From: Candidatus Nomurabacteria bacterium
GTDB lineage: Bacteria > Patescibacteriota > Minisyncoccia > Phycocordibacterales > UBA9973
DNA: 64,000 nucleotides
Assembly (NCBI GenBank): GCA_021413905.1
Contig: JAIOPO010000004.1
Location: forward strand, 1,597 to 65,596
Direction of reading: 5' to 3'
A program made the translations under genes and the position numbers. Each line of letters starts with the position of its first letter. Within the stretch, counting starts at the first letter, position 1. A model generated the notes under the pieces. That model did no database searches. It was not told the origin of the DNA and worked only from the letters and a program-made list of their open reading frames with translations. Of this stretch, positions 4,533 to 40,344 are shown in pieces.

Positions 4533-5012
4533 TTATTTCTTTTTAGCAACCTCATTCAAACCTAATGCCAATCTTTGCATAGGAGATTTGAGCAAGAAAG
4601 CCAATCTTGAAAGCAACACTTCTCTGCCCGGGATAGTAGCGATTTCCATCATTCTACCACCATCTACGAATTTACCTTCAAAAATACCTCCCAAAATATT
4701 TAACATATTTTTATGAGTTTTTTGAAAATTGTAAATCTCACGAGCTGGAGCTATCTCATCTGCGGAATATGCCATTGCGACTTCTCCGCCAAGCTCTGGG
4801 ATTTCCCCTTCCGCTTTGCCAGTCAATGCGCGTTTCAACAAAGTCTTTCTTGAAACTTTATAAGAAACACCTTGATTTCTCAAGTCACGACGAAGAGATG
4901 TCTCATCTCCTGCTGTCATGCCATGAAAATTCACAAAGACAACAGATTTTGAACCGGAAACATTTGTCTCCAAATCCTTTATCATTTCTTCTTTTCTATT
5001 TTTTGTAAGCAT
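4533..5012 (-). CDS. rplJ: 50S ribosomal protein L10
   Basis: It lies directly upstream of rplL. The length and the sequence (VVFVNFHGMTAGDETSLRRDLRNQGVSYKVSRKTL) are typical of L10. Confidence 0.93.
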   Translation of the reverse strand: MLTKNRKEEMIKDLETNVSGSKSVVFVNFHGMTAGDETSLRRDLRNQGVSYKVSRKTLLKRALTGKAEGEIPELGGEVAMAYSADEIAPAREIYNFQKTHKNMLNILGGIFEGKFVDGGRMMEIATIPGREVLLSRLAFLLKSPMQRLALGLNEVAKKK

Positions 5013-5029
5013 AATTGATTTTATTTTTT

Positions 5030-5170
5030 AAATTAAAAAACGGCCTTTCAGCCGCAAATTTATACACCTAAATGTATCGACCCCTAGATAGGACCTCTTC
5101 CCTCGATAAACTCGGGATGCCTACCTTCATTGCGGTATTTAAAGTATAACACAAAACTATATTTTTGCAA
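5030..5170 (-). promoter_or_regulatory. Candidate rplJ promoter plus structured leader/attenuator
   Basis: On the minus strand: TTGCAA, 16 nt, then an extended -10 gTGtTATACT (about 5170-5142). A roughly 100-nt stretch follows that is more GC-rich than its surroundings. Its ends can pair (CCGCAA...TTGCGG). A small hairpin CGGC-tgaaag-GCCG and TTTTTT sit about 25 nt before the rplJ ATG. Confidence 0.35.
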
Positions 5171-5367
5171 ATGATTTTATTACAAACAAATCATCCAAAA
5201 TAATCAGTCAGAAAATAAGCAGTTAAACCTAAAATCAAAAGAAATAAAAAAATCAAAAGTGTCTTAAAAAAATGTTTATTTACCATCTTTTTATTATATA
5301 TGAAAATATAATATATTAAAAATATATAAAGCTTTATTTTAAAAATATTTTATGTATACTAATCTAT

Positions 5368-6651
5368 ATGGACAGATCAAGGAAAATGATACTTTTTGCG
5401 GGTGATATATCTATGTTATATATTGCAGGCTATTTAACACTCCTTATTCGTTTTGGTATTAAACAAGCTTCTAACGAAATACCGACTCATATTTTACCTT
5501 TTATTATTTGGACAATACTATTATCTATTATTTTTTATATTTTTAATCTTTACGAAACGACATCTGTAAAATTAACTTTTAAAAACTTAAAACAATTTTT
5601 ATTTGCATTATCTACGAGCATAGTCTCAGGTATAATGTTATTTTATTTATTTCCCTTTTCCATAACTCCAAAAACAAACTTATTATTGACTCAAATATTA
5701 TTTTCCTTATTTATTTTAATTTGGCGTAGATTTTACTACAATATTTTTTCAAAAAAATTTAAAAATCAAATTGCTTTCATTGGAAAAACAACACCTGAAT
5801 CAGAAATATTAATAAAAAATATAATTGAAAATCCACATATAGGATATTCATTTATTGGAAATTTTAAAAATTTCTCAGATTTACAAACAAGTAAAATAAA
5901 AATAAATACAATAGTTTATACTGAAAAAGATAATTCTATAAATTTGGAAGAGCTAAGCAAATCAGATTATGATTATCTAAACATAACAAAAGCATTTCAA
6001 ATCATTTTAAATAAAATACCGGTCAGTCTTATGGATAACGAAATTGCTTTAAATATTTTAGAAAACAAAAAGAACATTGTTTTTAACAGTATCAAAAGAT
6101 TAACTGATATAATATTTTCAATAACAATACTTATAATCACCTTACCAGTAACCATAATAACCGCACTTTTAATATTCATAGAAGACAGAAAAAATATATT
6201 TTATAAACAAATTCGTGTTGGTTACAAGAAAAAAAAATTTAATATAATAAAATTTCGTTCAATGAATATAAATGCCGAAAAAAATGGTGCTGTTTGGGCA
6301 ATAGAAAAAGATCCACGCACAACTTTTGTCGGAAAAATAATAAGAAAATTACATATAGATGAAATACCACAAATGATAAATATACTCAAAGGAGATATTT
6401 CACTAATAGGTCCCCGACCTGAAAGACCTGAATTTGTTGAAATTCTAGAAAAAGAAATTCCTTTTTACTTTTTACGTCAAACAATAAAACCTGGTTTCAC
6501 AGGCTGGGCACAAATAAAATTTCGATATGCACGATCAGTGGTAGACAGTAGAGAAAAATTTGAATACGATTTATATTATATCAACAATTGGAATTTGTTT
6601 TTAGACTTAGGAATTTTAATAAAAACAATTCAAATAATTTTTAGTCATTAA
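5368..6651 (+). CDS. Polyprenyl-phosphate glycosyl-1-phosphate transferase (WbaP/bacterial sugar transferase family)
   Basis: The C-terminal domain is KRLTDIIFSITILIITLPV...KFRSMNINAEKNGAVWAIEKDPRTTFVGKIIRKLHIDEIPQMINILKGDISLIGPRPERPEF. This is the Bac_transf signature. Confidence 0.9.
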   Translation: MDRSRKMILFAGDISMLYIAGYLTLLIRFGIKQASNEIPTHILPFIIWTILLSIIFYIFNLYETTSVKLTFKNLKQFLFALSTSIVSGIMLFYLFPFSITPKTNLLLTQILFSLFILIWRRFYYNIFSKKFKNQIAFIGKTTPESEILIKNIIENPHIGYSFIGNFKNFSDLQTSKIKINTIVYTEKDNSINLEELSKSDYDYLNITKAFQIILNKIPVSLMDNEIALNILENKKNIVFNSIKRLTDIIFSITILIITLPVTIITALLIFIEDRKNIFYKQIRVGYKKKKFNIIKFRSMNINAEKNGAVWAIEKDPRTTFVGKIIRKLHIDEIPQMINILKGDISLIGPRPERPEFVEILEKEIPFYFLRQTIKPGFTGWAQIKFRYARSVVDSREKFEYDLYYINNWNLFLDLGILIKTIQIIFSH

Positions 6652-7741
6652 TAATCTCTTTATAAATTTGTATTGTTTCTTGAATCATTTTTTCTAAAGA
6701 GAAATTATTTTTTGCTCGCAAAAAAGCATTTTGACTCATGCAAGTCAAAATATTTGGATTTTTATATAAATATTCAATATATTCAGCTAATTCTTGTGCT
6801 GTATTCTTTTTTAACAAAAAACCAATATCTGATGTTACTATTTCGGAAACACCTCCAACGTCACTTGCAATGACCGGCAAACCTTTAGAAATTGCTTCTA
6901 ATATAGAACGAGGTAATCCTTCTTGTTTAGTAGGTAAAATAAATAAGTCATTTTTTTCCAAAAAAGATAAAATTTCCAATCTAGATAAAGCACCCATAAA
7001 AATAACTTTTTCATTTAAATCATTTTGAATAACCAAAGAATTCAATTTGTCATAATTAGGACCATCACCCACAATATAAACAATAATATTATTTATAATA
7101 TCTTTAGGTAAAATATTTAAAGCATTTAAAAGTAATTCTGGTTTCTTTTGATTAGACAATCTACCCACAAATATTATAGATTTCAAACTTTCACGAATTA
7201 AAGGTTTTTCACTTGGTATCTCCGCTCCATTGTGTATATTTATTAATTTATAAAGAGGAGCAACTTTTAATTTAATAGCTAAATTTAAATCATATTTTGA
7301 AACACATATTATCTTTTTACAAAAATGAGAAGCCAATAATTCAGAAGGATATGTAATAATTTTTTGCAAAAAAGGTGAACCTTGTCCAAATGACCAACCA
7401 TGCGCAGTAAATATTGTTGGTTTTTTATTTAAAATAGACAATCTACCAAAAATTCCAGCAATACCACTATGGCAAGACACGATGTCTGGATCAAAACTAT
7501 CCACAGTATTTAAAATTATTTTTTTTGATTTTAAAAAATTTAAAAAACTATAAGAATTTTTAAAATAATCATTTGAAATAAAAATTCCACCCAAATCTTT
7601 TATCGCAAATTCCAACCATCCGCCAGGACTACTCATTACGGCCACATCGTGTCCTTCTTTTTTCAAAGCTCGACACAATTGAAATATATGTGTCTGTGCT
7701 CCCCCTTCTGTTGATTTAGTTATTAAAAAAAGTATTCTCAT
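6641..7741 (-). CDS. Glycosyltransferase family 4
   Basis: GT-B fold pattern: an N-terminal GGAQTH motif and a C-terminal EGLPRSILEAISKGLPVIASDVGGVSEIV (E-x7-E type). Confidence 0.85.
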   Translation of the reverse strand: MRILFLITKSTEGGAQTHIFQLCRALKKEGHDVAVMSSPGGWLEFAIKDLGGIFISNDYFKNSYSFLNFLKSKKIILNTVDSFDPDIVSCHSGIAGIFGRLSILNKKPTIFTAHGWSFGQGSPFLQKIITYPSELLASHFCKKIICVSKYDLNLAIKLKVAPLYKLINIHNGAEIPSEKPLIRESLKSIIFVGRLSNQKKPELLLNALNILPKDIINNIIVYIVGDGPNYDKLNSLVIQNDLNEKVIFMGALSRLEILSFLEKNDLFILPTKQEGLPRSILEAISKGLPVIASDVGGVSEIVTSDIGFLLKKNTAQELAEYIEYLYKNPNILTCMSQNAFLRAKNNFSLEKMIQETIQIYKEIIND

Positions 7742-7750
7742 AGATTAAAT

Positions 7751-8884
7751 TTAATTAAAAAGATTTTTAATTTTCAAAACAAGATTTTCCCATTTATAAT
7801 TTTCATAAACAAAATCCTTAGCTTCTTTTATTAAATTATTTTTTAAATTTAAATCTTGTAACATTAAAATCTTTTCTGCTATATCATTAGGATTAAATGG
7901 ATCACAAAACAAACCAGTTTTTTTATCAAATAGAAAATCTACAATACCGCCAACTTTTGTGCCAATAATAGGTAGACCAAAAGACATGGCTTCAATAAAA
8001 GAATTTCCTAATCCTTCTGAAAAAGAAGGCCTGATGAATATGTCAGCATATTTAAAATAACTTGGTATTTTTTTATGTTCCACATCACCAATAAAAAAAA
8101 CTCTATCATTTAATTTATGATCGAAAACTATTTTTTTTAATTTATTTTCAAGAAACCCTGAGCCAATAATTAATAATTTGTAATTATCAGATAAATAATT
8201 TAAAGACAAAATACAATTTGCTATATTATTTTTTTCAACTAACCTAGAGGTGGTTATTAAATAAATATCATCTTGTTTCTTGTTTAAAACAATATCAGAA
8301 TTCTGTTTTACATCAGAAGAAAAAATATTTATATCTACACCGTTAGGTATTATTTCAATTTTTTTTGCTCCCATTTCAACGGCAAAAAATGCCAAATAAT
8401 TAGAAATAACATGAACTATTTTAGCTCTTTTAAATATCAATTTATAAAAAGGCATTATGAAAAAAAATTTTCTTTTAATAATTTCTACAGATTTTCCTTC
8501 TTGAATAGTTAAAATATATGGAATTTTTGAATATAAAAAATTAAAAAACAAAACGGCAAACCCTGCATAACTTGCCATTAAAGACCAAGTGAAATCGTAT
8601 CTTTTTTTATTATTCAATTGAATTGCTTTAAATAAAGCAAGCAGAGGAAATATTATTTTTTGAAAAGAAAAAAATATTTCATTTTTTGTACACCAACCTA
8701 CATTATACACATTGATGTTTCCTATTTTTTTAAATAAAGAATTATTTTTTCTTAAAGTTATCATATCAAAAACAAAACCGTCATCCATACGATCAGTAAA
8801 TTCTTTTATTGCTATTTCTGCTCCACCGACAAATTCAGGCAAAAAAACAACAGAAAATATTAAAATTTTTTTACTATTTTTCAT
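7751..8884 (-). CDS. Glycosyltransferase family 4
   Basis: The C-terminal motif SFSEGLGNSFIEAMSFGLPIIGTKVGGIVDFL supports the call. I prefer the start at MKNSKKILIFS (8884), which overlaps the stop of the upstream gene by 11 nt. Confidence 0.8.
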   Translation of the reverse strand: MKNSKKILIFSVVFLPEFVGGAEIAIKEFTDRMDDGFVFDMITLRKNNSLFKKIGNINVYNVGWCTKNEIFFSFQKIIFPLLALFKAIQLNNKKRYDFTWSLMASYAGFAVLFFNFLYSKIPYILTIQEGKSVEIIKRKFFFIMPFYKLIFKRAKIVHVISNYLAFFAVEMGAKKIEIIPNGVDINIFSSDVKQNSDIVLNKKQDDIYLITTSRLVEKNNIANCILSLNYLSDNYKLLIIGSGFLENKLKKIVFDHKLNDRVFFIGDVEHKKIPSYFKYADIFIRPSFSEGLGNSFIEAMSFGLPIIGTKVGGIVDFLFDKKTGLFCDPFNPNDIAEKILMLQDLNLKNNLIKEAKDFVYENYKWENLVLKIKNLFN

Positions 8885-9671
8885 CTTTAAACAAGATACT
8901 TGGTTTAATAAAATCAAAGCCTAATTCTTGGGCATAATCGACTATTTCTAAAAATATTTTTTTATTTTCTTCGGACATCATGTGTAAATGATTCACCAAT
9001 ATGAAATTTCCATTGATTTTTTTTGCATACAATAAACCCTTTTTTAATATATCTAAACCCAGCTCAACACGAAAAGAATATGCTTCTTGATGCTTACCAC
9101 AATCAACAATATAAGGATAAGCTGGCATTTCCAAAGAAGATAAATTAAAAAAATTTAATTTATGTAAAATCATTTTAAGAATAACAAAAACATATTCTAT
9201 TCTAAATAAAAAATTTTTTGAACCCTTGCTTCTAATTATATTCATACGAGCATTTTCTATTGCTATTATGCCATTATTGGATATTTGATCATGTGGAGGA
9301 ACAAAAATATCAACTTTTCTTTTAAAAGTTTTTTCTAACTCTTCTTTACCTCTTAATGTTTCAATTTTTAAATTCTTATTTTGTAAATATTCAAAGACAT
9401 TATTTATTTTTTCATGAGTACAACCATGTTGAAAAATATCAATATTGATATTACTGTTTATATAATTTACCAAATCAATATTTTCTGACACTAAATACTC
9501 TTTTTTTTCTTCTGAAATATTCCAAGGATATACATCACTCAACGAAGAAACAAAAGGAATAACGGAAAGTCCAACTGATATATTTCTTTTAAAAATAGAA
9601 GAATACAGATTTTCAATATCTTGAGGTTTAGTAAAAAAATTCGTATCATCATCTCTTATAATAAATTTCAT
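8874..9671 (-). CDS. Polysaccharide deacetylase-like protein (DUF2334-type)
   Basis: The pattern MKFIIRDDDTNFF...GLSVIPFV...QHGCTHE...DIFVPPHD matches the RxDD / HG-x-H / fvPP pattern I associate with DUF2334/carbohydrate esterase folds. This is memory-based. Confidence 0.45.
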   Translation of the reverse strand: MKFIIRDDDTNFFTKPQDIENLYSSIFKRNISVGLSVIPFVSSLSDVYPWNISEEKKEYLVSENIDLVNYINSNINIDIFQHGCTHEKINNVFEYLQNKNLKIETLRGKEELEKTFKRKVDIFVPPHDQISNNGIIAIENARMNIIRSKGSKNFLFRIEYVFVILKMILHKLNFFNLSSLEMPAYPYIVDCGKHQEAYSFRVELGLDILKKGLLYAKKINGNFILVNHLHMMSEENKKIFLEIVDYAQELGFDFIKPSILFKDEK

Positions 9672-9672
9672 T

Positions 9673-10833
9673 TTATTTTATATTTTCTATTTTTAATATA
9701 TTTTCGTAAATACAAAAAACTTTCTCGTTAAAACATTCTTTTTTTAAAACCGCTTCTCTGCTCGCAACACCCATATCAATACATTCTTCTTTATTTGAAT
9801 ATAAATAATTTAATGCTTTTAAAATATCATCTGATTCACCTTCACGAACAATAATACCATGTTTTCTATCTTGAAAAAAATTCTCTGTATCTGTTGCATT
9901 TTTTGTGGTAATAACAGGCACACCGCAAGACATAGACTCCGCAACTGAACGACTAAAACCTTCGGTAAAAGAAGGTAATATGGTTACATCCGAAGAGCCT
10001 AAAATAAATTCCGGATTATTCACTATTCCCAATTCTTTTATTGAAATATCTTTTTTTATTATTTTTTCGTATTTTTCTTTCATCTCAATCGGCCAAAGAT
10101 TTTTTTTACCAAGAATAATTAATTTTTTATTAGGTATATCAAATTCTTGCCACGCATCTAAAACATATTGCAAACCTTTTAATATTCCAATATTAGAAGC
10201 AGGAAAAACAACAGTAAAGTAATTCTCATTTTTTTTTAATGGAACAAATCTTTCGGTATTAATATCCAAATTAGCAACAAAAATTTTATTTTCAGGGTAG
10301 CCATTTTCTACATATGTTTTTTTTGAAAAAGGAGACAAAGCAATTAAATAATCCATATTAAAAGCATAGTCTGCTTCAATAGTGTTTTTAGGGATTATTT
10401 TTATATTATTTTTTTCTAATTCTTTTTTCATTAAACTTTCGGTATGCAAAGGATGAGAGTTTACAGCAATACCAATACATAAATTATTATTTGTTTTGTT
10501 TATATTTATAGTCTTTGGAAATTTAGGAGGATGAAAAAAAACAATTTTATCTTTTAAAATAAATTTACTTGCAAAAAAATCAAAAAAATATTCTTCTATT
10601 TTCCTTGAAGGAAAATCTTTAAAGAATTTACCAAAACCTGCAATCAAAAAATGTAAAAATAATGGTAATGCTGAATACTGATAAAAATCTTTTTTTTTAT
10701 CAGTACCAATACGAGAAATGACCCCAAATATAGCTTTTTTATTTTCAAAATAATCAATCACTCCTGCAATATCCTCAGTTTTCAAATTTCTATATTTTCC
10801 CCTATCTGCATAAGTAACAAATAATGATTTCAT
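9673..10833 (-). CDS. Glycosyltransferase family 4
   Basis: The C-terminal motif PSFTEGFSRSVAESMSCGVPVITTKNATDTENF supports the call. I prefer the start at MKSLFVTYADRG (10833), which avoids overlap with the divergent flippase gene. Confidence 0.75.
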   Translation of the reverse strand: MKSLFVTYADRGKYRNLKTEDIAGVIDYFENKKAIFGVISRIGTDKKKDFYQYSALPLFLHFLIAGFGKFFKDFPSRKIEEYFFDFFASKFILKDKIVFFHPPKFPKTININKTNNNLCIGIAVNSHPLHTESLMKKELEKNNIKIIPKNTIEADYAFNMDYLIALSPFSKKTYVENGYPENKIFVANLDINTERFVPLKKNENYFTVVFPASNIGILKGLQYVLDAWQEFDIPNKKLIILGKKNLWPIEMKEKYEKIIKKDISIKELGIVNNPEFILGSSDVTILPSFTEGFSRSVAESMSCGVPVITTKNATDTENFFQDRKHGIIVREGESDDILKALNYLYSNKEECIDMGVASREAVLKKECFNEKVFCIYENILKIENIK

Positions 10834-10891
10834 AAATATGATATAGTATATCATATAAATACTCTTATTTAAAAAGTATTTATATATAAAA

Positions 10892-12130
10892 ATGTCTTTA
10901 AAAATCAACCTAAAATCCATACTAAGAGATAATTCAATAAATTACACCTTAAAGAATACCTCTCTGGCAATAGTTGGTAAAACTATAATTTTTATTTTTG
11001 GTTTTCTTTTAATGAAAGCTTTTTCTCATTTTACCAGCAAAGAAACAATTGGATTATATAATTATGTTATTGCTGTACTTACAATAATAAGTATAACCAC
11101 ATTACCAGGGACAACATCGGCTCTAGTGCGCGCAATATCTAATGGTAAAGAAGGTAGTTTTTTGCATATGACCAATGCGCGTTTACGTGGTGGAATATTT
11201 GCCTTCATTTTATCTTTTTGTATTGGTATTTTTTATATAATAAAGGGAAATAATACAATTGGTTATGTCTTTTTTGTCGGCGCTTTATGCACCCCTTTCA
11301 TAGACACCCTAAGCGAAATGGCATTTGCTTATTGGCAAGGTAAAAAAAATTTCAAAAAAAGTATCTATCTTTCTATAATTTATCAAATATTATTCACAAT
11401 ACCTTCAATTCTTGTTTTAATTTTTATAAAAAAAACAATCCTATTAATTAGCTTAATATTTTTATTTCAAGCATTAAGTGGTTTTTTGATTTATAAAACA
11501 ATATCTACGGAGAACAAAGAACGCGACATTGAATCAGAAAATTTTAGCCTGCATCTTACAATAGTAAACGGATTGCATACAATAGGTATGACAATAGACA
11601 GAATAATAATCTGGCATCTTTTTGGTAGCATATCATTGGCAATATATACATTTGCAATAATACCCATAACAAAATTAGAACAACTTATTCCTATTGAATT
11701 TTTATCTTTACCTCATTTAAGCAATCAAATAAAAATAACAAATAATAAAAAAGATATCAATGAAAAAACATTACTGCTTTTTATAATACTAATCCCGTTT
11801 ATTTTATTTGGCTGGTTTATTGCACCGCTTTTTTATAAAATAATTTTTCCAAATTTTCCTGAATCAATACATCTATTTAGGATCCTTCTTTTGTTACCAT
11901 TATGTGCTTTTTTTAGTTTACCAAAAACAGCATTAATAGCGTGGAAACAACAAGAAAAATTATATTATTTAGAATTTTTTTCAATACTCATAAAAATACC
12001 GACACTTATATTTTTTGGTTTAAAATTCGGCATGACTGGTATAGCAGAAGGTTTGGTTATATCTCGAATAATTGAAGGTATAATGATTGTATATTTATTC
12101 AATAAAGTAAAAATAAAAAATGAAAACTAG
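10892..12130 (+). CDS. Oligosaccharide/polysaccharide flippase (Wzx, MOP superfamily)
   Basis: 412 aa and polytopic (roughly 12 hydrophobic segments). It sits inside a glycan gene cluster. Confidence 0.7.
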   Translation: MSLKINLKSILRDNSINYTLKNTSLAIVGKTIIFIFGFLLMKAFSHFTSKETIGLYNYVIAVLTIISITTLPGTTSALVRAISNGKEGSFLHMTNARLRGGIFAFILSFCIGIFYIIKGNNTIGYVFFVGALCTPFIDTLSEMAFAYWQGKKNFKKSIYLSIIYQILFTIPSILVLIFIKKTILLISLIFLFQALSGFLIYKTISTENKERDIESENFSLHLTIVNGLHTIGMTIDRIIIWHLFGSISLAIYTFAIIPITKLEQLIPIEFLSLPHLSNQIKITNNKKDINEKTLLLFIILIPFILFGWFIAPLFYKIIFPNFPESIHLFRILLLLPLCAFFSLPKTALIAWKQQEKLYYLEFFSILIKIPTLIFFGLKFGMTGIAEGLVISRIIEGIMIVYLFNKVKIKNEN

Positions 12131-13097
12131 AAATTTTAAAAAACCTAAAACAATAATAGTAACGGGTTGTGCTGGTTTTATAGGAAGTAATTTTGTAAAA
12201 GTTTTCAAAAAAGAATTTCCAAAAACAAATATAGTTGGAATTGATGATTTGTCTACAGGAAAAATTGAAAATATAAGCAATCAAATAAAATTTTACAAAA
12301 AATCTATTTTAAATGAAAAAGAAATGGAAAAAATATTCAAAGAACATAAACCAGAATACATTTTTCATTTCGCAGCATTACCAAGAGTTTCATATTCAAT
12401 AGAAAATCCAATAAAAACAAGTGAAATCAATATCACAGGAACAATAATTCTTTTAGAAAAATCAAAAAAATACAAAATAAAAAGATTTATATTATCATCG
12501 TCATCATCTATTTACGGTGGAGCAAAAAAAATGCCAACAAGTGAAAACAATAATCAACCAAATCCAAAAAGCCCTTACGCTCTTCAAAAATATGTAGACG
12601 AACAATTTTGTAAATTATTTAGTGATTTATTTGAAATGGAAACAATCGCATTAAGATATTTTAATGTTTTTGGACCTGGTCAATATGGAAAATCTGCATA
12701 CACTACGGTTATTTCTGGATGGCTGGAATCAATATATTTTCCAAAAAACAAAAAAGGATTTATCGAAGGTGATGGTAGCCAAACTCGTGATTTTTGTTTT
12801 GTTGAAAATATAGTTTTTGCAAACATATGTGCAATGAAAGCCACTGGAGTATTTAAAGGTGAAATTTTTAATATCGGTAATAATATAAGAATTAGTTTAA
12901 AAGAAGTAAAAGAAAAAATAGAAAAATATACAAATAAAAAATTGGAGCTTGAGAAAAGACCAAGTAGATTCGGTGATGTTAAACATACACACGCTGACAT
13001 TAAAAAAGCAATGAAATATTTAAAATATAAACCATTAATTAGTTTCTCAGATGGACTAAAAAAGACAATAGAATGGTTTGAGATGAGAAGAAAATAA
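12120..13097 (+). CDS. NAD-dependent nucleotide-sugar epimerase/dehydratase (extended SDR)
   Basis: It has the Rossmann motif TGCAGFIGSNF, the catalytic YALQK (YxxxK) and SSSSIYG. Confidence 0.9.
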   Translation: MKTRNFKKPKTIIVTGCAGFIGSNFVKVFKKEFPKTNIVGIDDLSTGKIENISNQIKFYKKSILNEKEMEKIFKEHKPEYIFHFAALPRVSYSIENPIKTSEINITGTIILLEKSKKYKIKRFILSSSSSIYGGAKKMPTSENNNQPNPKSPYALQKYVDEQFCKLFSDLFEMETIALRYFNVFGPGQYGKSAYTTVISGWLESIYFPKNKKGFIEGDGSQTRDFCFVENIVFANICAMKATGVFKGEIFNIGNNIRISLKEVKEKIEKYTNKKLELEKRPSRFGDVKHTHADIKKAMKYLKYKPLISFSDGLKKTIEWFEMRRK

Positions 13098-13106
13098 AAA
13101 ATTATA

Positions 13107-13973
13107 TTATTCTGCAATAATATTTATTAATGGTATTGAATTATATTTTTCAATATAATCAGTAACTTTGTTTAAAACCTCAATCTGTTCTGGTTCTAAT
13201 ATTTTCATTCTTTTTGTAGCAATATAAAAATTGTCCTTATCCCCTTCTAAATAAAAAGTGTTAAAAAAACGTTCGTATATTTTCTTGGTAAAATCAGGAC
13301 TTGGATTAACATTTTGATTTAAACTAAATTCAAAATAATCTAACGCTGATTTATATTTTTCAGGACTAGTTGTAGCCAAAACCAAACCCATATAATAATG
13401 ACCTTCTGGAATTGAATTATTTTTATTTAAAGAATTATTCAACAAATCAATTGCTTCTTTTTTCATACCCCTATTACTCAAATTAAAAGCATAAGCGTAG
13501 ATCACGTCTTGTCTTTCTGGTGCCAAAGCAAAAGCTTGCTTGTAGTATTTTAAAGCTTTTTCATACATACTTTTATCATTATATAAATATCCATTTTGAT
13601 CATAAGCTTTTCCTAAAGAAAGATAATAATTATAATAAGCTGGTTTTTCTTTATCTAAATAATCAGAAAATTTATCAATAGCAAAATCAAATAAAGGATT
13701 TGATTGAGTCAAATCTCCGTTTTTATATTTGTTAAAAAATTCATTTACCATTGTATACCTGATCTGTCCTTGTATATAAGTATCAGGTGAAAATATAAAA
13801 GTTTTTTTAGTAAATTTCAAAGGATCATTTAATAAAATTGAAGTAAAATGTTTTGAAAACGTAACTGTTTGTATAAAAGGTATAAATGTCCAAAAAACAA
13901 AAAAAGAAGAAATAACAAAAGTGAAAAAATAACTAAATATTAATAATAAAATCTCTGTATTATTTTTTTTCAT
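13107..13973 (-). CDS. Membrane-anchored TPR-repeat protein
   Basis: It has an N-terminal TM helix and TPR-like repeats (LSLGKAYDQNGYLYNDKSMYEKALKYYKQAFALAPERQDVIYAYAFNLSNRGMKKEAIDLL). I prefer Met12 as the start. The gene overlaps the upstream Wzy_C gene. Confidence 0.6.
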   Translation of the reverse strand: MKKNNTEILLLIFSYFFTFVISSFFVFWTFIPFIQTVTFSKHFTSILLNDPLKFTKKTFIFSPDTYIQGQIRYTMVNEFFNKYKNGDLTQSNPLFDFAIDKFSDYLDKEKPAYYNYYLSLGKAYDQNGYLYNDKSMYEKALKYYKQAFALAPERQDVIYAYAFNLSNRGMKKEAIDLLNNSLNKNNSIPEGHYYMGLVLATTSPEKYKSALDYFEFSLNQNVNPSPDFTKKIYERFFNTFYLEGDKDNFYIATKRMKILEPEQIEVLNKVTDYIEKYNSIPLINIIAE

Positions 13974-15267
13974 AAAATTCTTGTACATTAAAAATAATAA
14001 ATCCAATAATTACATAAAAAAATAAATAAGAAGTAATAGTATCCATTGCAAATAAACCTTGAACAAAGAAAGCTGACAATAAAAACAAAACAAATGATAT
14101 TTCTATTCTAGATAAATTTTTTATTTTAAAAAGTTCCTTAAAAAGAAAAAACCATAAAGATAAATAAGCAAAAAGACCGAGTAGTCCATTCATTGACCAT
14201 ATATCCAACAACTTGTTATGAGTTCTATCAAATATTCCCCTATCAAAAGAAAACAATTCAGCTGGATATATTTTTTGCCATAAAAAAGAATAATTATCCC
14301 AACCCCAACCAAGTAAATTATTTTTAAAACTATTCAATTTAGGACTTAAGGACTGAACAGTTGTTTTAGCTAAAAGTAAACGAGCCTGTGTATTACCATC
14401 AGAGGTATCAAAATCTGCTAAACGAGAAAATCCAGGTATTTTTTGCCAGAACATAAAATGCCTGGTCATAAAAAATAAGGCACTAAAAGAAACGATTAGA
14501 ACAAGTATTCCAACAGATATTTTTTGTAAAGAATACTTATTTAAAAAATAAATATTTTTCCCTTTAAATACCAAATAAAAGAGAGCAAGAATTACACCTA
14601 AAAATATTCCCAACATCACCCCTCTTGATTCTGTAATCAAAATACCTAAAACAGAAAAGAGTCCGGCAAATATTCCAATAAACTTAAACCAATTATTATT
14701 CTCTTTTACACCTCTTGACCAAAACAAAAGACTAAAAAATAAAATAAAAAGCAAATAGACTGCCAAAAAAATAGGGTTATCTACCAAAGAACCAGGGCGT
14801 AAAGTTCCATTAAACTTCTCTACCATTTCAACTATAAATAAAATAAAACCTGAAAAAATACTAATTTGAAAAAAATCATACCAATCTTTTTTTTCAAAAA
14901 TTAAAATAAATAGAAAAAAGATAATATATAAAAAAGACAAACCGACAAGCCCTTCCCCGCGCTCCATTGTGCCAGTAAAAGCCACAGAAGGACTATAAGC
15001 AAAAATCGTACTTAAAACTAAAATAACATAAGAAAACAAAACACACCAAACAACTTTATTATTTTTAAATATTTGTATTTTTTCTATTATTTTTTTTCTA
15101 AATTTTAAATCAAGAGATATTAAAACAGTAAATAAAAATAGAGCTAAAAAAACCAAAGTTCTAAAAAAGAATACTTTTGGTGTAGTATATGGAATCAATA
15201 TGCTTTTCCAAAACACAACTGGAGTCAAAGCAGTAGCAAATAAAGACAATTTAAGTAAATTCTTCAT
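13960..15267 (-). CDS. O-antigen ligase/polymerase family (Wzy_C) membrane protein; possible O-oligosaccharyltransferase
   Basis: 435 aa and polytopic, with a central loop SRGVMLGIFLGVILALFYL typical of the Wzy_C region. It sits in the glycan cluster. Confidence 0.7.
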   Translation of the reverse strand: MKNLLKLSLFATALTPVVFWKSILIPYTTPKVFFFRTLVFLALFLFTVLISLDLKFRKKIIEKIQIFKNNKVVWCVLFSYVILVLSTIFAYSPSVAFTGTMERGEGLVGLSFLYIIFFLFILIFEKKDWYDFFQISIFSGFILFIVEMVEKFNGTLRPGSLVDNPIFLAVYLLFILFFSLLFWSRGVKENNNWFKFIGIFAGLFSVLGILITESRGVMLGIFLGVILALFYLVFKGKNIYFLNKYSLQKISVGILVLIVSFSALFFMTRHFMFWQKIPGFSRLADFDTSDGNTQARLLLAKTTVQSLSPKLNSFKNNLLGWGWDNYSFLWQKIYPAELFSFDRGIFDRTHNKLLDIWSMNGLLGLFAYLSLWFFLFKELFKIKNLSRIEISFVLFLLSAFFVQGLFAMDTITSYLFFYVIIGFIIFNVQEFYEKK

Positions 15268-15292
15268 ACTACTATATTAACAAATACAAAAC

Positions 15293-15324
15293 AAAAAACC
15301 ACCCCTTTCGGAGTGGTTTTTTGT
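15293..15324 (-). terminator. Rho-independent terminator after the large surface-protein gene
   Basis: Minus-strand hairpin CCACTCC-gaaa-GGGGTGG (15299-16), flanked by A and T runs. Confidence 0.75.
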
Positions 15325-15379
15325 TTCGATTACGATTCGAAAACGTTTCTACTGTCCTTAGACATTTAGATCAGATCTA

Positions 15380-18300
15380 CTAATTGTAGATTGTTGAACT
15401 GAATGTGTTAGGGAAGTTGTAGATATTAGCAGTACCAGTCAATGAACCACCAGCACCTGCAACGTCTGTCCAACTAAATGCTGAACCTGTCGCAAGAGAT
15501 GTTGTCATAGAAGCACCGTTAACACCTGTACCTGTAACAGCAGTTGGAGTTACATAGACACGGAATGTCTTTGAAGTTCCAGCTGGGATCAAGTATGAAC
15601 TACCAAAAGTAATTGTACTTGAACCTCCTGTTGTAGCAGAGAAAGCTGAGTTTGATACAGATACTGTTTGACCATCAGAAGTTACAACTGAAATGTTACT
15701 TGTTGATGTTGTACTTACAGTAGCAGCATTAAGAGCAACAGTTATTGGGAAAGCATCAAGAGAAATATCTCCTTTTGAATCCGCAGCGATTGTTACGTCT
15801 ATAGCTTCTGTAGCAGCTGCAGCAAGAGTTGCTGTAGGTTTAGAAGCAGTTACTGTAGGTTTAGAACCAACGAGTGTCATTGTTGTTGTTGAAGCAACTG
15901 GTGTTATAGCACCTGATGTTGTTGTACCACCGATTGTGTATTTTCTGTAAGTCAATTCAATGATTGAAGTTGAGCCAGAAGATACACCGTTTGTACCAAC
16001 ATGGTTGTAAGAAACATAAACATCAGTTTGTAGACCTGAACCACCGTTAGGAACAGTTAGGTTAACACCTGACAAATATGCCATACCGTAAGTTGTTACA
16101 GCAGCACTATTTGAGTGAGTAGCAGCAGATGTACTGTTAACACCACGAGTTACTGTCAAAGTTGTTCCAGAAACTGCTGTTACCAACATTTCTTCAGAAT
16201 CAACTAAGAATACAGAACCAACATCCATACCAGCAGCTGAAGTAACAGAAACTGAAGTAGCTGTTGTTGTTGTTATCGCAGCACTAAGAGTAGTAGCAGC
16301 AGGAGTTACTACTGGAGCTGTTAGAGATCCTACGCGGATTGATCCAACTGTACCAGCTGTACCTCTTGTTACAAATTTCAATTCAGAAACTGTAGCTGTA
16401 CCATTTGTAGCTGAGAATTTGAATGTTTGTTTTACAGCATCTGTAGCACCACCGTTTGCTGCAACGTATTGAGCAACTGTTGATGAAGAAGCAGTAAATG
16501 TAGGTGAACCGAATGTACCACTTGACATAGTGATTGTTTGACCTGTAGTAAATGCACTAGGAGTCAAAGTAACACTTGAAGAAGTACCGACTGCTGTAGG
16601 TTTTAACTTAGCAATCACTGTAGGAGAACCTGTTGTTGAACCAATATCAGCAAATACATCAACTGTCTTTGTTGCACCTGGAGCAAGCTCGAAGTTAACA
16701 GAGAAGTTGTTTACTGAATCTTGACCAGCCGCTGCTGTTGCAGGGTTGATTGGAGTTGAACCTGAACCTGAAGTTTCAGATGTTCTCAAATTTGCGTAGT
16801 TTGTAGATGCAGCTGTAGTAAGACTAAGAGTTACTGCAAGATTAGTTACGCGAATTGATTCAGAGGTACCTTGGTTTTGAAGAACGAAAGATCCGATCTT
16901 TGCACCAGTAGCATTTGGACTCAATGTGTAATCAGCATAACCAGTATTTTTTGATACTGATAATGTACCTGTTTGAATTGTCAAACCTGAAGTAGTAACA
17001 GAAGTAGCAGGAACATTAACTGAATAAAGTGATGTCATACCTTGTGCATTATTTGAACCAGTTGAGAGTGCTACAGTAATAGATCCATCAGAGTAGTTAA
17101 GGTTTGTACTATATGTTGTAAGATCTGCACGAACTTCAAGAATTGAATCAACTCCTGCAGGAACGATCAAAGATGAACCAAGTGTAAATGTAAGTGCTTG
17201 TGTAGTAGCACTTGTCATATTTGTACTTGAACCAACTTGTGAACCATTAAAGAATAAAGTCACATTATTAAGACCTGCAGCAGTAACTGCTGATTGTCCT
17301 GACAATGTAGGTGTAACTGTAAGAGTTTGAATCTTTACATCTTCACCATATCCATGAAGTTTGAATTTCGCAATAGCAGTATTTGTAGCACCACCAGTTA
17401 CGTTACTCATAAGTTGGAAAGCAGGGTCAACATTTGCAGTTACTGAACCGTAACTAACACTAATTTTACCTGCAGTATTTGAAGCAAATGCTGTTGGACA
17501 AGTACCTGAACAAGCAGCAATATTAATACCAAGTTGTGAATCAGTAACCATTAGATCAGCCGCATTTTGAATTGAAAATGTGAAATCTCTATTAGAACCT
17601 TTTTGAACATCTCCACGAACATCAATTGTATGTGTACCTGTGTTCAATGAAAGTGGGTTTGAACCAAAATCAAAGAAAGCATAGTTGTTAGATCCAACAG
17701 TTGTTGCTGAACCTATAGCTGTACCGTCTACATAAAGTTTGATGTTTTGAACAGCGTCAATTGGAGCAGATCCAACGACACGGAAGTTAGCACCTTTTAA
17801 GAATGCTGAACGTCCACTAACTGTCAAAGGAGCTGACCATACTGTGTATCCAGGAGAACCAGCATTAATAGTTGCTACTGGTACAGTGTTTGCACCAAGA
17901 GCAATCTGACTACTGTTACTTGGTATTGCAGAAACATAGAAAACATTAGCAGCAACATTAGCAGTATTTGCTGTTGTTGAACCTGTTACCATGTAACTTG
18001 TCAAAGTAACACCAAGAGATACTGATGAAACTGGTGACGCCATATCAACTTTAACAGAAAGAGTCTTTGAACCATTAACAGCGATATTTAAACCACTGAA
18101 AACGATTTGACCATTTGTGTTAACACTTGCTCCGTCAGTTAGACGCATATTTCCATCAAAAAGGTAGACACTAGAAATGTCAGCACTTGTTGAAAGACCT
18201 GTGCGTTGTAATGTTACGTTTGAAAGTGTTCCAGAACCTGTGAAAGTAAAGTGCGCAAGATCAGCCAAAGCTTGACTTGAAAGCACAGTTCCTGCAGCAG

Positions 18301-18661
18301 GATTATCTGTAGACAACATTACTGACAATGGGCCAGTAGGAGTTGGTGTTGGATTAGGAGTTGGAGTTGTTGTTCCAGCTACTTTTCCAAGAGTCATCTT
18401 TCCAGCGATACCATCAGCTTTTAAGCCGTTAGCTGTTTGGAAAGCCATAACTGCAGCTTTTGTTAATTTACCGAAGTATCCAGTTGCTGGAGTTACTCCG
18501 AGAGCTGTTTGGAGACATGTGACTCCAGAACTTCTCATACCGAACTTAAGAGTTGTAGTACCACAATCTGTCGCAGCACTTGCTACTGTAGCAACGCCTA
18601 CGAACATAACCATAGCAACCATAACTCCAAGAAGGAATTTTGATTTGAATAATTTATTCAT
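15380..18661 (-). CDS. Large secreted cell-surface protein: signal peptide, PG_binding_1-like domain, then about 950 aa of Thr/Ser/Ala/Gly/Val-rich beta-repeat region (S-layer-like candidate)
   Basis: Signal peptide MNKLFKSKFLLGVMVAMVMFVGVATVASA. A peptidoglycan-binding-like segment follows (CLQTALGVTPATGYFGKLTKAAVMAFQTANGLKADGIAGKMTLGKV), then a TTPTPNPTPTPTG linker. The remainder has low-complexity composition without charged runs. Confidence 0.85.
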   Translation of the reverse strand: MNKLFKSKFLLGVMVAMVMFVGVATVASAATDCGTTTLKFGMRSSGVTCLQTALGVTPATGYFGKLTKAAVMAFQTANGLKADGIAGKMTLGKVAGTTTPTPNPTPTPTGPLSVMLSTDNPAAGTVLSSQALADLAHFTFTGSGTLSNVTLQRTGLSTSADISSVYLFDGNMRLTDGASVNTNGQIVFSGLNIAVNGSKTLSVKVDMASPVSSVSLGVTLTSYMVTGSTTANTANVAANVFYVSAIPSNSSQIALGANTVPVATINAGSPGYTVWSAPLTVSGRSAFLKGANFRVVGSAPIDAVQNIKLYVDGTAIGSATTVGSNNYAFFDFGSNPLSLNTGTHTIDVRGDVQKGSNRDFTFSIQNAADLMVTDSQLGINIAACSGTCPTAFASNTAGKISVSYGSVTANVDPAFQLMSNVTGGATNTAIAKFKLHGYGEDVKIQTLTVTPTLSGQSAVTAAGLNNVTLFFNGSQVGSSTNMTSATTQALTFTLGSSLIVPAGVDSILEVRADLTTYSTNLNYSDGSITVALSTGSNNAQGMTSLYSVNVPATSVTTSGLTIQTGTLSVSKNTGYADYTLSPNATGAKIGSFVLQNQGTSESIRVTNLAVTLSLTTAASTNYANLRTSETSGSGSTPINPATAAAGQDSVNNFSVNFELAPGATKTVDVFADIGSTTGSPTVIAKLKPTAVGTSSSVTLTPSAFTTGQTITMSSGTFGSPTFTASSSTVAQYVAANGGATDAVKQTFKFSATNGTATVSELKFVTRGTAGTVGSIRVGSLTAPVVTPAATTLSAAITTTTATSVSVTSAAGMDVGSVFLVDSEEMLVTAVSGTTLTVTRGVNSTSAATHSNSAAVTTYGMAYLSGVNLTVPNGGSGLQTDVYVSYNHVGTNGVSSGSTSIIELTYRKYTIGGTTTSGAITPVASTTTMTLVGSKPTVTASKPTATLAAAATEAIDVTIAADSKGDISLDAFPITVALNAATVSTTSTSNISVVTSDGQTVSVSNSAFSATTGGSSTITFGSSYLIPAGTSKTFRVYVTPTAVTGTGVNGASMTTSLATGSAFSWTDVAGAGGSLTGTANIYNFPNTFSSTIYN

Positions 18662-19160: not shown

Positions 19161-20027
19161 TTAATTGATTGAATATTTTGACCAGCGTTTCTCTCCTGCT
19201 TTCTTAAGGACACCGGAGTTTACCATGGCGACTAATTCTCTTTGTAATGTCTTTTCTCCGCACGTAGAAAGATGTCCGTTAGAAGATTTAACAATGTCCT
19301 TTATCTCTGCAATAGTAGCGTCTTTTTTACCTTGTCCTTTAGATAAATCTTTTAAAATATTAACTATTTCGGATTGTCTGTCCTTTTTCAATTTATCAAA
19401 ATTATTAATTGGTTTTATTAGTGGCATCTTGTCCGTTAAAGCTTTCAACAAAGTGCTTCCCTTTTGGACACCGAGACGAGTAGTCTGATGGTTTACCGGA
19501 GCTGGAATCTGTATCGGATATTTCACAAAAAGCTGTCCTTTATTTTGATCTTTTTTATCTACAGAGTAATTATTTTTATTTTCAGTATTTAAAGAATTTT
19601 CAATATCTTTATCTTGCAAAAGAGTATCTAAAAATATATGTGTTTTATCTTGAGAAAATTCAATCAAAGAATCGTGTAATTTTACAAATTCTCTTTTTAA
19701 AATATCATGATTCATTTCAGAAATTAAATGCACTGTAAAGGCAATGTCCAATAGAGACAAAATCTGCTTAACATTACGGACACCATTATTTTTAAAGGTA
19801 GAAAATGTGTCTGATATAATTTCTACAGCCAATGTCCTTAATTGAATCCTGATAGGTTCATCAGTGTCCATTATGTCCGTAACCATGTATAAAGCGCTTA
19901 TAAGTTTATTTGTTTTTGAATAGGACCCGGAACCAAAACCTTCAGCTTGGTATGGGGCAGGTATTGACGTGGTGTCTTTTATAGAATTAGTCTTGGAAGT
20001 TTTATTTTCTTCAAACATATTGTCCAT
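19161..20027 (-). CDS. Hypothetical protein with C-terminal winged-helix-like domain
   Basis: 288 aa. The C-terminus, ATIAEIKDIVKSSNGHLSTCGEKTLQRELVAMVNSGVLKKAGEKRWSKYSI, resembles a wHTH. Confidence 0.45.
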   Translation of the reverse strand: MDNMFEENKTSKTNSIKDTTSIPAPYQAEGFGSGSYSKTNKLISALYMVTDIMDTDEPIRIQLRTLAVEIISDTFSTFKNNGVRNVKQILSLLDIAFTVHLISEMNHDILKREFVKLHDSLIEFSQDKTHIFLDTLLQDKDIENSLNTENKNNYSVDKKDQNKGQLFVKYPIQIPAPVNHQTTRLGVQKGSTLLKALTDKMPLIKPINNFDKLKKDRQSEIVNILKDLSKGQGKKDATIAEIKDIVKSSNGHLSTCGEKTLQRELVAMVNSGVLKKAGEKRWSKYSIN

Positions 20028-39800: not shown

Positions 39801-40344
39801 AAACCTTAAAATCTTTATATAAAAATCCTCTATCATTTATTTTCTTTACAACACCCCACAATGCTTCTATATAACTGTTTTCATATGTCACATATGGATT
39901 TTCTTGGTCAATCCAATAACCCATTCTTTCTGTAAATTTATTCCAAAATTCCAAATATTCCCAAACATTCTCTTTACACTTTTGATTAAAAAGTTTTACA
40001 CCATAATTTTCTATTTCTTTTTTTGATTTTAAACCAAGAGCTTTTTCCACAGCCAATTCAACAGGCAAACCATGTGTATCCCAACCCCCTTTTCTACCAA
40101 CATGAAAACCTTGCATTGTTTTGTAACGAGGAACAACATCTTTGAAAGAACGAGCTTCTAAATGATGAATACCTGGTTTACCATTTGCTGTCGGTGGTCC
40201 TTCATAAAAAATATAATCTCCTTTTGGATTATCTTTTCGATTTATCGTCTTTTCAAAAATTTTATTTTCTTTCCAGAATTCTAAAACTTTTTCCTCACGC
40301 AAAGCTGTCTCACTTTTTGTAATATTTTCTTTATTTTCAGACAT
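36865..40344 (-). CDS. ileS: Isoleucyl-tRNA synthetase (type 2) carrying an inserted histidine-phosphatase (PGAM-like) domain
   Basis: IleRS features are the HIGH region (PPTANGKPGIHHLEA), the editing-domain motif WTTTPWTLP, DVWFDSG and KMSKS. Between PIPVW and DFHKPYID there is a segment of about 190 aa with RHGETEAN, FTSDFTRTIETA, REIGAYSFDG and VTHGG. Confidence 0.95.
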   Translation of the reverse strand: MSENKENITKSETALREEKVLEFWKENKIFEKTINRKDNPKGDYIFYEGPPTANGKPGIHHLEARSFKDVVPRYKTMQGFHVGRKGGWDTHGLPVELAVEKALGLKSKKEIENYGVKLFNQKCKENVWEYLEFWNKFTERMGYWIDQENPYVTYENSYIEALWGVVKKINDRGFLYKDFKVLPWCTRCGTALSSHELSQPGAYKDVKDLSVYIKFKIKNFDHAYFLAWTTTPWTLPGNVGLAVGNDFIYVEAKVGDEILVLAKERLEILNQPYEIIAEHKGSEMIGMEYEPLFPYLKDLAKDDEKIKNAFKIYGADFVTTTDGTGIVHTAVMYGADDFELGTKVGLPKYHTVNEEGKFVIGTDFLAGRYVKETDENGKPTLAVDIINHLTERSLLFKKENYMHSYPHCWRCDTPLIYYARSSWYFRMSALREQLLAGNEKINWEPEYIKKGRFGEWLDGIKDWAISRDRYWGTPIPVWQKEDGSYKVVGSLADLKKYTKKSGNKYFVMRHGETEANKKNIICTQPSGKWHLDKDGKEQVEISAEFLKDKKIDLIFTSDFTRTIETAEIVAQKLGLNKENIIKDERLREIGAYSFDGKNWEEYHKYHIKTEANFNLHVEDDESYQDVKNRMTAFLYDVEEKYKDKNILFVTHGGPAWLLCAGIEGKNVKETLKMILDKKDFHFFQNAEIKELDFVPLPHNANYELDFHKPYIDEIVLEDNGQKMIRTGEVMDVWFDSGAMPYAQNHILGKEIDFNPIKADYISEAIDQTRGWFYTLHAVINLLSDEPGNAYKNVVCLGHILDANGQKMSKSKGNVVDPWLMFEKYGADTIRLWMYSVNQPGESKNFDERTVMEIHRQFFGLLYNVVAFYELYRDPQLEVFTELKSENILDQWILARLNELNKTVTDNLDNYRTLEPVRAVRDFIDDLSTWYLRRSRERIKNGDIEAKQTLYFVLKNLVKIMAPFAPFASEDIWQKLKNKNDVESVHLAEWPEVNILNFNDEILENMKQVREIVSSGLKERQKSGIPVRQPLSNIQIFYHEFNINYIEILKEELNIKNVEFIKSENVEDVIKLDTEITPELKIEGNYRELVRAVQDMRKTKGLMPSDLIVLKIDTDEKGKEIINKFKDEFLKIVGVKQIDFTKNDGNEIKINELVFKVVIE
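38266..38835 (-). other. Histidine phosphatase superfamily (branch 1) domain embedded in ileS
   Basis: My hand mapping places the RHG codons at 38820-38812. The domain ends at ...KELDF (38266). Confidence 0.75.

Follow-up and report, generated by a model that had tools for sequence, protein, structure and literature searches.

The locus described here lies at positions 5368-18661 of a 64-kb stretch of DNA (the whole stretch analysed, hereafter called the window) from a Candidatus Nomurabacteria bacterium. It comprises a cluster of glycan biosynthesis genes, a membrane protein of the Wzy_C family with a tetratricopeptide repeat (TPR)-like partner, and the gene for a large secreted protein rich in Thr and Ser, and it was analysed as a candidate system for O-glycosylation of a surface protein. 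The host had been taken to be of the candidate phyla radiation (CPR) type, and this was borne out in that the Wzy_C protein, the TPR-like protein and the large protein are identical to NCBI entries for Candidatus Nomurabacteria bacterium from an 86-kb contig.

Domains were assigned by Pfam and NCBIfam searches of the open reading frames (ORFs) of the locus, and the ten ORFs and domains listed in the initial annotation were all recovered at the coordinates given there. The cluster begins on the forward strand with a priming polyprenyl-phosphate hexose-1-phosphate transferase, a large phosphoglycosyltransferase (PGT) of the WbaP/WcaJ type (5368-6651; Bac_transf, E = 1e-63), which scored above the curated cut-off of TIGR03025 (exopolysaccharide (EPS) polyprenyl glycosylphosphotransferase; 311.8 vs 295.6 bits). 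On the reverse strand follow three GT4 glycosyltransferases, at 6641-7741 (Glycos_transf_1, E = 5e-37; Glyco_transf_4, E = 4e-19), 7751-8917 (Glycos_transf_1, E = 1e-33) and 9673-10920 (Glycos_transf_1, E = 1e-19), the last two separated by a DUF2334 protein (8874-9671, reverse strand; PF10096, E = 9e-8, above cut-off) that is predicted to be a deacetylase-like glycan-modifying enzyme. A Wzx-type flippase (10892-12130; Polysacc_synt, E = 5e-10) and a short-chain dehydrogenase/reductase (SDR) of the nucleotide-sugar 4-epimerase/dehydratase type (12120-13097; Epimerase, E = 2e-52; best NCBIfam matches TviC and GalE, both under their cut-offs) are encoded on the forward strand. The reverse strand then carries the bitopic TPR-like partner of 288 aa (13107-13973; weak TPR matches), the Wzy_C/WaaL-fold membrane glycosyltransferase of 435 aa, which is a candidate O-oligosaccharyltransferase (O-OTase; 13960-15267), a strong intrinsic terminator (15287-15328) and the gene for the 1093-aa secreted protein, a candidate S-layer or cell-wall protein and glycan acceptor (15380-18661).

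The segment 5368-15267 forms a low-GC island (GC 23-27%, flanks 33-39%), and its GC content at third codon positions (GC3) is 0.14-0.19 compared with 0.23-0.34 in the backbone and flanks. The surface-protein gene is island-like as well (GC3 0.16), which was rejected as evidence for a joint cassette since another Ser/Thr-rich gene and hlyD are equally low. Only AT-rich chance repeats were found at the island borders, so that a mobile-element border is without support, and no tRNA was found in the window. In Pfam searches no ABC transporter (Wzm/Wzt) was found at the locus, the Wzx-type Polysacc_synt protein being there instead.

The Wzy_C enzyme and its TPR-like partner

The protein encoded at 13960-15267 matched Wzy_C (PF04932) over residues 201-369 (E = 1.3e-12; 48.2 bits, cut-off 31.7). 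Its AlphaFold2 (AF2) model, built from 27 homologues, had a pLDDT of 90.2, and hydropathy, the helices of the model and the positive-inside rule gave a topology of 12 transmembrane (TM) helices with both termini in the cytoplasm, the short loops holding 12 Lys and Arg residues inside and 3 outside. The polar residues that are invariant in the family all face outward (E105, R282, R296, G320-W-G322, D347-R-x-H350-N and D355), the near-invariant R157, R215 and D409 likewise, and most of these residues are located in the 84-residue loop between TM9 and TM10. The protein therefore combines a WaaL-like polytopic fold with a large extracytoplasmic loop containing conserved Arg and His, and the Arg/Arg/His arrangement of the outside loop is common to WaaL and PglL (PMC3643930). 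A fold search with the model returned the O-antigen ligase WaaL first (PDB 7TPG/7TPJ; 12-13% identity to the window protein), followed by the SEDS proteins RodA and FtsW, and sequence searches of the PDB with the protein and with the family profile gave no match. WaaL differs in that it has no TPR partner, and the window locus has no lipopolysaccharide (LPS) context.

Homologues of the Wzy_C protein fall into two length classes, a short one of about 430 aa and a long one of about 700-735 aa. The TPR ORF corresponds to the C-terminal third of the long class. It aligned to the last 276 residues (459-734) of a homologue of 734 aa in which both parts are fused (E = 1e-38) and also to a 731-aa Nomurabacteria protein (E = 3e-26), and the two ORFs of the window are therefore the two halves of a fused architecture. 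The earlier suspicion that they represent a split version of a fused Wzy_C-TPR protein is proven by the first of these alignments together with the recurrence of the junction in at least 15 independent assemblies, in which the start codon of the second ORF precedes the stop codon of the first by 11 or 14 nt, in overlaps of the ATGAAAxxxTAA type whose sequences differ among assemblies. Two extents of the overlap (13960-13973 and 13960-14006) had been considered, and the shorter one (14 nt) was confirmed, as the ATG at 13973 gives a protein of 288 aa that matches both the NCBI call (a 288-aa hypothetical protein) and the starts of the homologues. The junction in the window contains a run of eight A, and loss of one A would fuse both ORFs. 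A sequencing or assembly error as the cause of the split was nevertheless rejected, since the same split occurs with differing junction sequences in the independent assemblies and stand-alone proteins of about 290 aa make up about two thirds of the 150 best TPR-domain representatives. As read from the sequence, the overlap implies translational coupling of the two genes.

In an exhaustive HMMER scan the TPR domain was found in 134 representative clusters at E<=1e-10, almost all of them stand-alone proteins of about 290 aa or the C-terminus of proteins of about 720 aa, and it occurs only with the Wzy_C-type enzyme family, either fused or as a neighbour; a word-indexed homologue search with the TPR ORF returned the self match only. 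The partner has one N-terminal TM helix (residues 8-26), which is TM13 in the fused relatives, and a TPR-like domain of about 260 aa, which is predicted to be extracytoplasmic because the helix is single and N-terminal with MKK inside.

A single contig of a relative (JBAXSP010000003.1, loci L034 and L036) carries one glycan cluster between two split Wzy_C/partner pairs, a 444-aa plus ~295-aa pair that adjoins the surface protein and a 426-aa plus 204-aa pair at the far end. The shorter partner type of about 200 aa is also found after second Wzy_C copies in three other loci (L009, L029, L035), and the existence of ~295-aa and ~200-aa partner types suggests, at the level of sequence, two paralogous enzyme types with different roles.

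The surface protein and its linkage to the enzyme pair

The 1093-aa protein contains 16.6% Thr and 12.7% Ser (together 29.3%, compared with 8-14% in the neighbouring proteins) and has a signal peptide at residues 1-29 (ending VASA, followed by A), in agreement with its earlier description as a secreted, Thr/Ser-rich protein. Pfam placed PG_binding_1 at residues 57-92 (E = 2.5e-11), and in the AF2 model (pLDDT 84) this peptidoglycan-binding domain is small and helical and spans about residues 33-97 (nt 18371-18565). It is followed by a disordered Thr/Pro linker, TTTPTPNPTPTPTG, at residues 98-110 (nt 18332-18370; pLDDT <50), and by a body of about 980 aa of Ig-like beta-sandwich domains, the model being all-beta after residue 112. 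The term PG-anchored therefore applies in the sense of a non-covalent peptidoglycan-binding domain and not in that of a covalent attachment, as there is no sortase motif in the protein. Foldseek returned only generic multi-Ig proteins, the S-layer protein Sap of B. anthracis among them.

The family has more than 541 homologues, most of them 1000-1250 aa long, and a few carry SLH instead of PG_binding_1; swapping of the anchor domain is typical of wall and S-layer proteins. An S-layer protein would be an abundant secreted protein that has a swappable wall anchor and forms a two-dimensional lattice; the window protein, as a candidate, has a signal peptide, an anchor that SLH replaces in some homologues, a multi-Ig body and a terminator of its own. 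The terminator (15287-15328, reverse strand) consists of a 19-bp stem and a U-tract, has a minimum free energy of -34.9 kcal/mol (z -5.3) and ends 20 nt before the Wzy_C start codon, and in a comparison of 25 related loci at least 13 had a similar hairpin 3' of this gene. The gene is separately terminated and probably highly expressed.

A Thr/Pro/Ser/Gly-rich linker follows the anchor domain in most relatives. The number of Thr, Ser and Pro residues in the linker was 8.5 of 12 in proteins with a neighbouring Wzy_C gene and 6.8 of 12 in those without, a comparison for which the samples are too few (n = 10 vs 13). In many homologues (e.g. L108, L118, L097, L119 and L130) a short motif bracketed by Cys residues, P-x-G-C-[TS]-S-x-x-G-[FY]-S-x-x-T-G-x-x-C, occurs once or twice in the linker, between the PG-binding and the first beta domain and within the N-terminal ~100-200 aa; in its place the window protein has its plain Thr/Pro linker.

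To examine the linkage from the enzyme side, 80 loci from GTDB species representatives, all of them Patescibacteria-type metagenome-assembled genomes, were compared; ORFs were called, genes for PG-binding proteins, Wzy_C-family proteins and glycan enzymes were marked, and a sample was checked with Pfam. A PG_binding_1 protein of 600-1180 aa, rich in Ser and Thr (18-30%), was encoded directly upstream of the Wzy_C(-TPR) gene on the same strand in 21 of the 80 loci, a count that includes loci in which it precedes a tandem run of up to three Wzy_C paralogues (L016, L017, L021, L030), and such a protein was found 1-3 ORFs from Wzy_C(-TPR) in another 10. Adjacency or near adjacency to a secreted Ser/Thr-rich wall protein was thus seen in 31/80 loci, and in 36/80 if a second protein family is included, since five loci of the Uhrbacteria type carry an unrelated secreted Ser/Thr-rich protein of 1260-1385 aa upstream of Wzy_C(-TPR). 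Because PG-binding proteins are otherwise nearly absent from these neighbourhoods, only about one locus should show such adjacency by chance. In 14 of the 31 linked loci the FtsK/p288 backbone of the window is missing and the pair therefore survives rearrangement; in L009 it lies amid unrelated genes. In genomes with two Wzy_C paralogues (L006, L009, L029 and L035) it is the TPR-bearing copy that adjoins the surface protein, and the second paralogue heads the glycan cluster.

The Uhrbacteria-type proteins (L074:1683-5462, L075:5851-9840, L081:5706-9863, L082:5571-9611 and L083:1569-5438) have no Pfam domain and share an N-terminal 'GDLIKASGPAVYYY..KRYVFPNEKTYFSWY' module. In L006 the surface-protein/Wzy_C-TPR pair is separated by an inserted block of mobile- or defence-like genes (12369-17331; AAA_14/DUF4143, a HicB-like antitoxin, Fic and MerR) from the glycan cluster, which begins with the second Wzy_C. 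Upstream of the surface-protein gene of the window lies a conserved neighbour without Pfam match, encoding 288 aa (19161-20027, reverse strand), homologues of which occupy the same position in most related loci, sometimes without FtsK; the counterparts in L009 and L093 gave faint or weak HTH_DeoR matches. From its sequence and position this protein may regulate the surface-protein gene, its link to the glycosylation system being uncertain.

Exchange of the glycan genes and alternative readings

In Nomurabacteria-like genomes the gene for the PG_binding_1 multi-Ig surface protein belongs to the core and occupies a fixed site. Locus L093 has the same backbone as the window (RecA, a Glucodextran_B protein, FtsK, a small helix-turn-helix protein and the surface protein, then rplJ, rplL and MscS), and in it small ORFs and IS1595-type and Y1 transposase genes are found where the window has the 9.9-kb island (L093:13069-17050, compared with window 5012-15380). 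The surface-protein gene is therefore core, and the accessory, exchangeable part is the island formed by the Wzy_C/TPR genes and the low-GC glycan cassette. Exchange was also seen within the island. In relatives whose FtsK is 60-73% and RecA 73-93% identical, Wzy_C (34-42%) and TPR (24-38%) are kept in place, and no orthologues of the glycosyltransferase genes of the window were found; loci L001-3, for example, carry GT11, GT2 and GT17 families in their stead.

On the basis of sequence and its comparative analysis we consider it moderately probable that the locus is an S-layer-type protein O-glycosylation module with a dedicated O-OTase for the adjacent surface protein. A two-subunit OTase would then most likely add a short, strain-variable glycan to the neighbouring wall protein. 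The idea of a dedicated glycoprotein pathway, already put forward in the initial annotation, gained from the split architecture and the conserved linkage and lost from the failure to match the PglL-specific model and from a reverse linkage that holds for only about one third of the surface-protein homologues.

Several results weigh against this reading. Judged from sequence and model, the enzyme is a member of the WaaL/Wzy_C superfamily in which ligase, polymerase and OTase are inseparable by sequence or fold, because among solved structures only WaaL, followed by the SEDS proteins RodA and FtsW, is matched. Of the family comparisons made for 13960-15267, PF04932 and the WaaL fold were positive; PglL_A (PF15864), a model derived from proteobacterial PglL (PMC3643930), was not matched in Pfam at E<=0.01, and the NCBIfam search of the protein gave no match. 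Since Wzy polymerases fall under PF04932 as well, the earlier argument that a cell without LPS offers a ligase no acceptor is a weak one. The strong terminator means that the surface-protein and Wzy_C genes are not simply co-transcribed. Among 41 surface-protein homologues with at least 2 kb of downstream sequence, Wzy_C was the immediate neighbour in 10 (6 co-directional, 4 convergent) and lay within 3.6 kb in 13 (the 10 adjacent and 3 more), so that the linkage proposed for relatives is conserved when seen from the enzyme (31/80 loci) and extends to only about a third of the homologues when seen from the surface protein. A mirror-tree comparison of Wzy_C with the neighbouring surface protein gave a weak correlation (rho 0.19, permutation p 0.0025), possibly inflated by low-complexity composition, and L034, which has the closest relative of the surface protein (58% identity), has a Wzy_C that is only 37% identical and is not the closest one. 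Finally, nearly all members of the Wzy_C family also adjoin glycan clusters, and position alone therefore fits a polymerase too; a distant subgroup (25-29% identity) lies inside glycan clusters, divergent from a PGT and with no such surface protein near.

Downstream of the remaining surface-protein homologues lie other genes, often for a protein with a C-terminal PG_binding_1 domain (296-722 aa; L098:16071-16976, L109:7919-8809, L114:10448-12574, L130:3947-6115, L132:14405-16483 and L153:9540-11633), one of which has a weak G8 domain match. Several genes of ~430-720 aa 3' of surface-protein homologues were considered, on account of their length, as divergent Wzy_C/TPR genes and rejected, 6 of 10 encoding other proteins with PG_binding_1 at the C-terminus according to Pfam. 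In its sequence content the region looks like a cell-wall protein gene cluster.

The Wzy_C protein might be the repeat-unit polymerase (Wzy) of an ordinary Wzx/Wzy capsule, EPS or wall-polysaccharide locus, its adjacency to the surface-protein gene resulting from a shared envelope neighbourhood or from a site between rplJ and the surface-protein gene that is a hot spot for insertions. The locus is otherwise complete for a Wzy-dependent pathway and offers no other polymerase candidate (a family-profile search found no second Wzy_C-family gene in the 64-kb window), the clusters that nearly all family members adjoin are variable, and relatives either lack the island or have an exchanged one at this site of the chromosome. 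The window Wzy_C is also only 34-42% identical to any relative, being about equidistant from them, and is accompanied by a unique glycosyltransferase set, as would be expected of a repeat-unit-specific enzyme. We nevertheless regard a polymerase as fairly unlikely. Positional orthologues of the Wzy_C protein (34-62% identity) remain beside wholly different glycosyltransferase sets, whereas true polymerases of unrelated repeat units usually have no recognisable mutual similarity. The pairing with the surface protein is found again in unrelated contexts and in either orientation, some genomes have a second Wzy_C that heads the glycan cluster, and Pfam detected neither a polysaccharide co-polymerase (PCP/Wzz) nor an LCP ligase gene at the locus, with the restriction that PCP genes could sit elsewhere. 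A TPR partner is not known to be a feature of Wzy. A dedicated extracytoplasmic one is a feature of the protein O-OTases WsfB, PglL and WsaA/WsaB (PMC2943079).

We consider it quite unlikely that the Wzy_C/TPR pair is a WaaL-like ligase which attaches the flipped glycan to something other than a protein, for instance to peptidoglycan or to a glycolipid or lipoglycan of the membrane. Its product would be a secondary cell-wall polymer with a possible part in organising or anchoring the wall-binding protein encoded next to it. In Firmicutes the genes for S-layer proteins often cluster with those for the wall polymers that serve as their ligands, and the many surface-protein homologues that precede further PG_binding_1 proteins point to a cell-wall neighbourhood. 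PG_binding_1, however, is described in Pfam as binding peptidoglycan and not a secondary polymer, and an anchoring ligand should be conserved together with the anchor domain, whereas the glycosyltransferase sets are exchanged and the anchor is kept. One relative (L093) has the surface protein and no island, and the TPR domain suggests a protein partner.

If the acceptor is a protein, it need not be the neighbouring one: the Wzy_C/TPR pair could be a general OTase, or one for another substrate such as type IV pilins, with the surface protein as one target or none. PglL-type enzymes are often general (PMC3643930), some homologues have no adjacent surface protein (L004/5, L028, L036, L039), and tandem paralogues (L016, L030) could differ in substrate. 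There is no pilin gene at the locus, and the statistical association is with large Ser/Thr-rich proteins. We hold this alternative to be very unlikely, and it overlaps the reading as a dedicated O-OTase more than it excludes it.

The remainder of the scanned window consists of housekeeping genes. Among them is a 1159-aa class-I aminoacyl-tRNA synthetase resembling IleRS (36865-40344, reverse strand; tRNA-synt_1, Anticodon_1 and DUF5915), in which a histidine-phosphatase domain (His_Phos_1, E = 5e-34) is inserted at residues 506-676 within the catalytic domain. Three sizeable ORFs on the reverse strand (56858-58711, 34277-36217 and 58763-60061) have no Pfam match, and the one of 617 aa is, like the surface protein, Ser/Thr-rich and has a very low GC3 (0.13).

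Comparison with known systems and the proposed pathway

The parallel with S-layer O-glycosylation turned out to be closer than had been drawn in the initial annotation, as it extends to a TPR domain that is either fused or separate, a low-GC cluster and a monocistronic target. The comparison with WsaB and WsfB was made from published descriptions. Wzy_C is present in both O-OTases. A TPR domain forms the C-terminal part of WsfB and PglL but is missing from WsaB, and the adjacent gene wsaA encodes a TPR protein (PMC2943079). The system of Geobacillus stearothermophilus NRS 2004/3a (WsaA/WsaB, target SgsE) is thus like the window in combining a Wzy_C enzyme with a TPR protein from a neighbouring gene, and that of Paenibacillus alvei (WsfB, target SpaA) has a Wzy_C transferase with the TPR domain fused, as in relatives of the window. 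The S-layer glycosylation (slg) pathways begin with a WbaP-type priming enzyme, the slg clusters have a GC content below that of the genome, and each S-layer gene is monocistronic, lying near the cluster in Geobacillus (PMC2943079); the window likewise has a WbaP-type priming enzyme, a low-GC glycan cluster and, near it, a separately terminated surface-protein gene. The slg systems differ in exporting via a Wzm/Wzt ABC transporter, whereas the window locus would use a Wzx flippase, and in SLH-anchored targets, the window target being anchored by PG_binding_1 in a patescibacterial host. WsaA has 168 aa and is encoded upstream, whereas the TPR partner of the window has 288 aa and a TM anchor of its own and is encoded downstream of the Wzy_C gene, which its start overlaps.

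An accessory island beside slpA in C. difficile SLCT-11 contains a ligase gene, orf19, that is required for the O-glycan on Thr38 of SlpA (PMC6254364). This island (orf2 PGT to orf19 ligase) resembles the window in the presence of a PGT, glycosyltransferases and a ligase beside an S-layer gene and in that only some strains carry it, as the window-type island is absent from L093. It differs in its ABC transporter, its long glycan and its operon, which is co-transcribed with the neighbouring S-layer cassette genes. PglL homologues adjoin their pilin target in 21 of 31 cases (PMC3643930). These pilin-adjacent OTases (PglL, TfpO/PilO, PglL-ComP/PglS) share with the window a Wzy_C enzyme gene beside a protein target, putative in the window, an Arg/Arg/His triad in the outside loop, and a Wzx-flipped glycan linked to undecaprenyl diphosphate, again putative in the window, that varies between strains. 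They differ in that PglL_A is unmatched in the window, that the target there would be a multi-Ig wall protein of about 1100 aa and not a pilin, and that the TPR domain is on a separate membrane-anchored polypeptide.

Accordingly arranged as a pathway, the genes would act as follows. The PGT (5368-6651) would start the glycan on undecaprenyl phosphate, the three GT4 enzymes would lengthen it, and the SDR epimerase and the DUF2334 protein would supply or modify sugars. Wzx would flip the oligosaccharide on its lipid carrier to the outside of the membrane, where the 12-TM Wzy_C protein (13960-15267), acting with its presumably translationally coupled, membrane-tethered TPR-like partner (13107-13973), would transfer it en bloc to Ser or Thr residues of the surface protein (15380-18661). 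The likely glycan sites would be in the Thr/Pro linker after the PG-binding domain or in the Thr/Ser-rich Ig-like domains. Gene content, fold, topology, the relation between the split and fused forms, the conserved linkage and the exchange of the cassette are what the analysis shows, whereas we infer the donor, the acceptor, the type of linkage, that the TPR domain helps to recognise the acceptor, and that the surface protein is of the S-layer kind.

In a paper on a Parcubacterium genome the formation and structure of the cell envelope were said to 'remain unclear' and a glycosylated S-layer was only speculated upon (PMC5220378), and our literature search found no paper on a protein glycosylation system in Patescibacteria. 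The locus and its relatives yield three parts that can be cloned, namely a putative coat protein, a candidate OTase of two subunits and a small glycan cassette, so that the idea is testable in glyco-competent E. coli with no need to grow the organism itself. Should the enzyme be a polymerase, the locus is an ordinary surface-polysaccharide locus. If it is an O-OTase for the surface protein, it would open a way to study how the surface of these episymbionts varies, and glycoengineering would gain a new O-OTase type. More tentatively, and as a possibility that we still find doubtful, the PG_binding_1 multi-Ig family might be the coat or S-layer of Paceibacteria and the module the CPR counterpart of O-antigen variation, with a distinct class of OTase whose tethered TPR domain would select the coat, and with a hypervariable glycan that would set host attachment and phage susceptibility.

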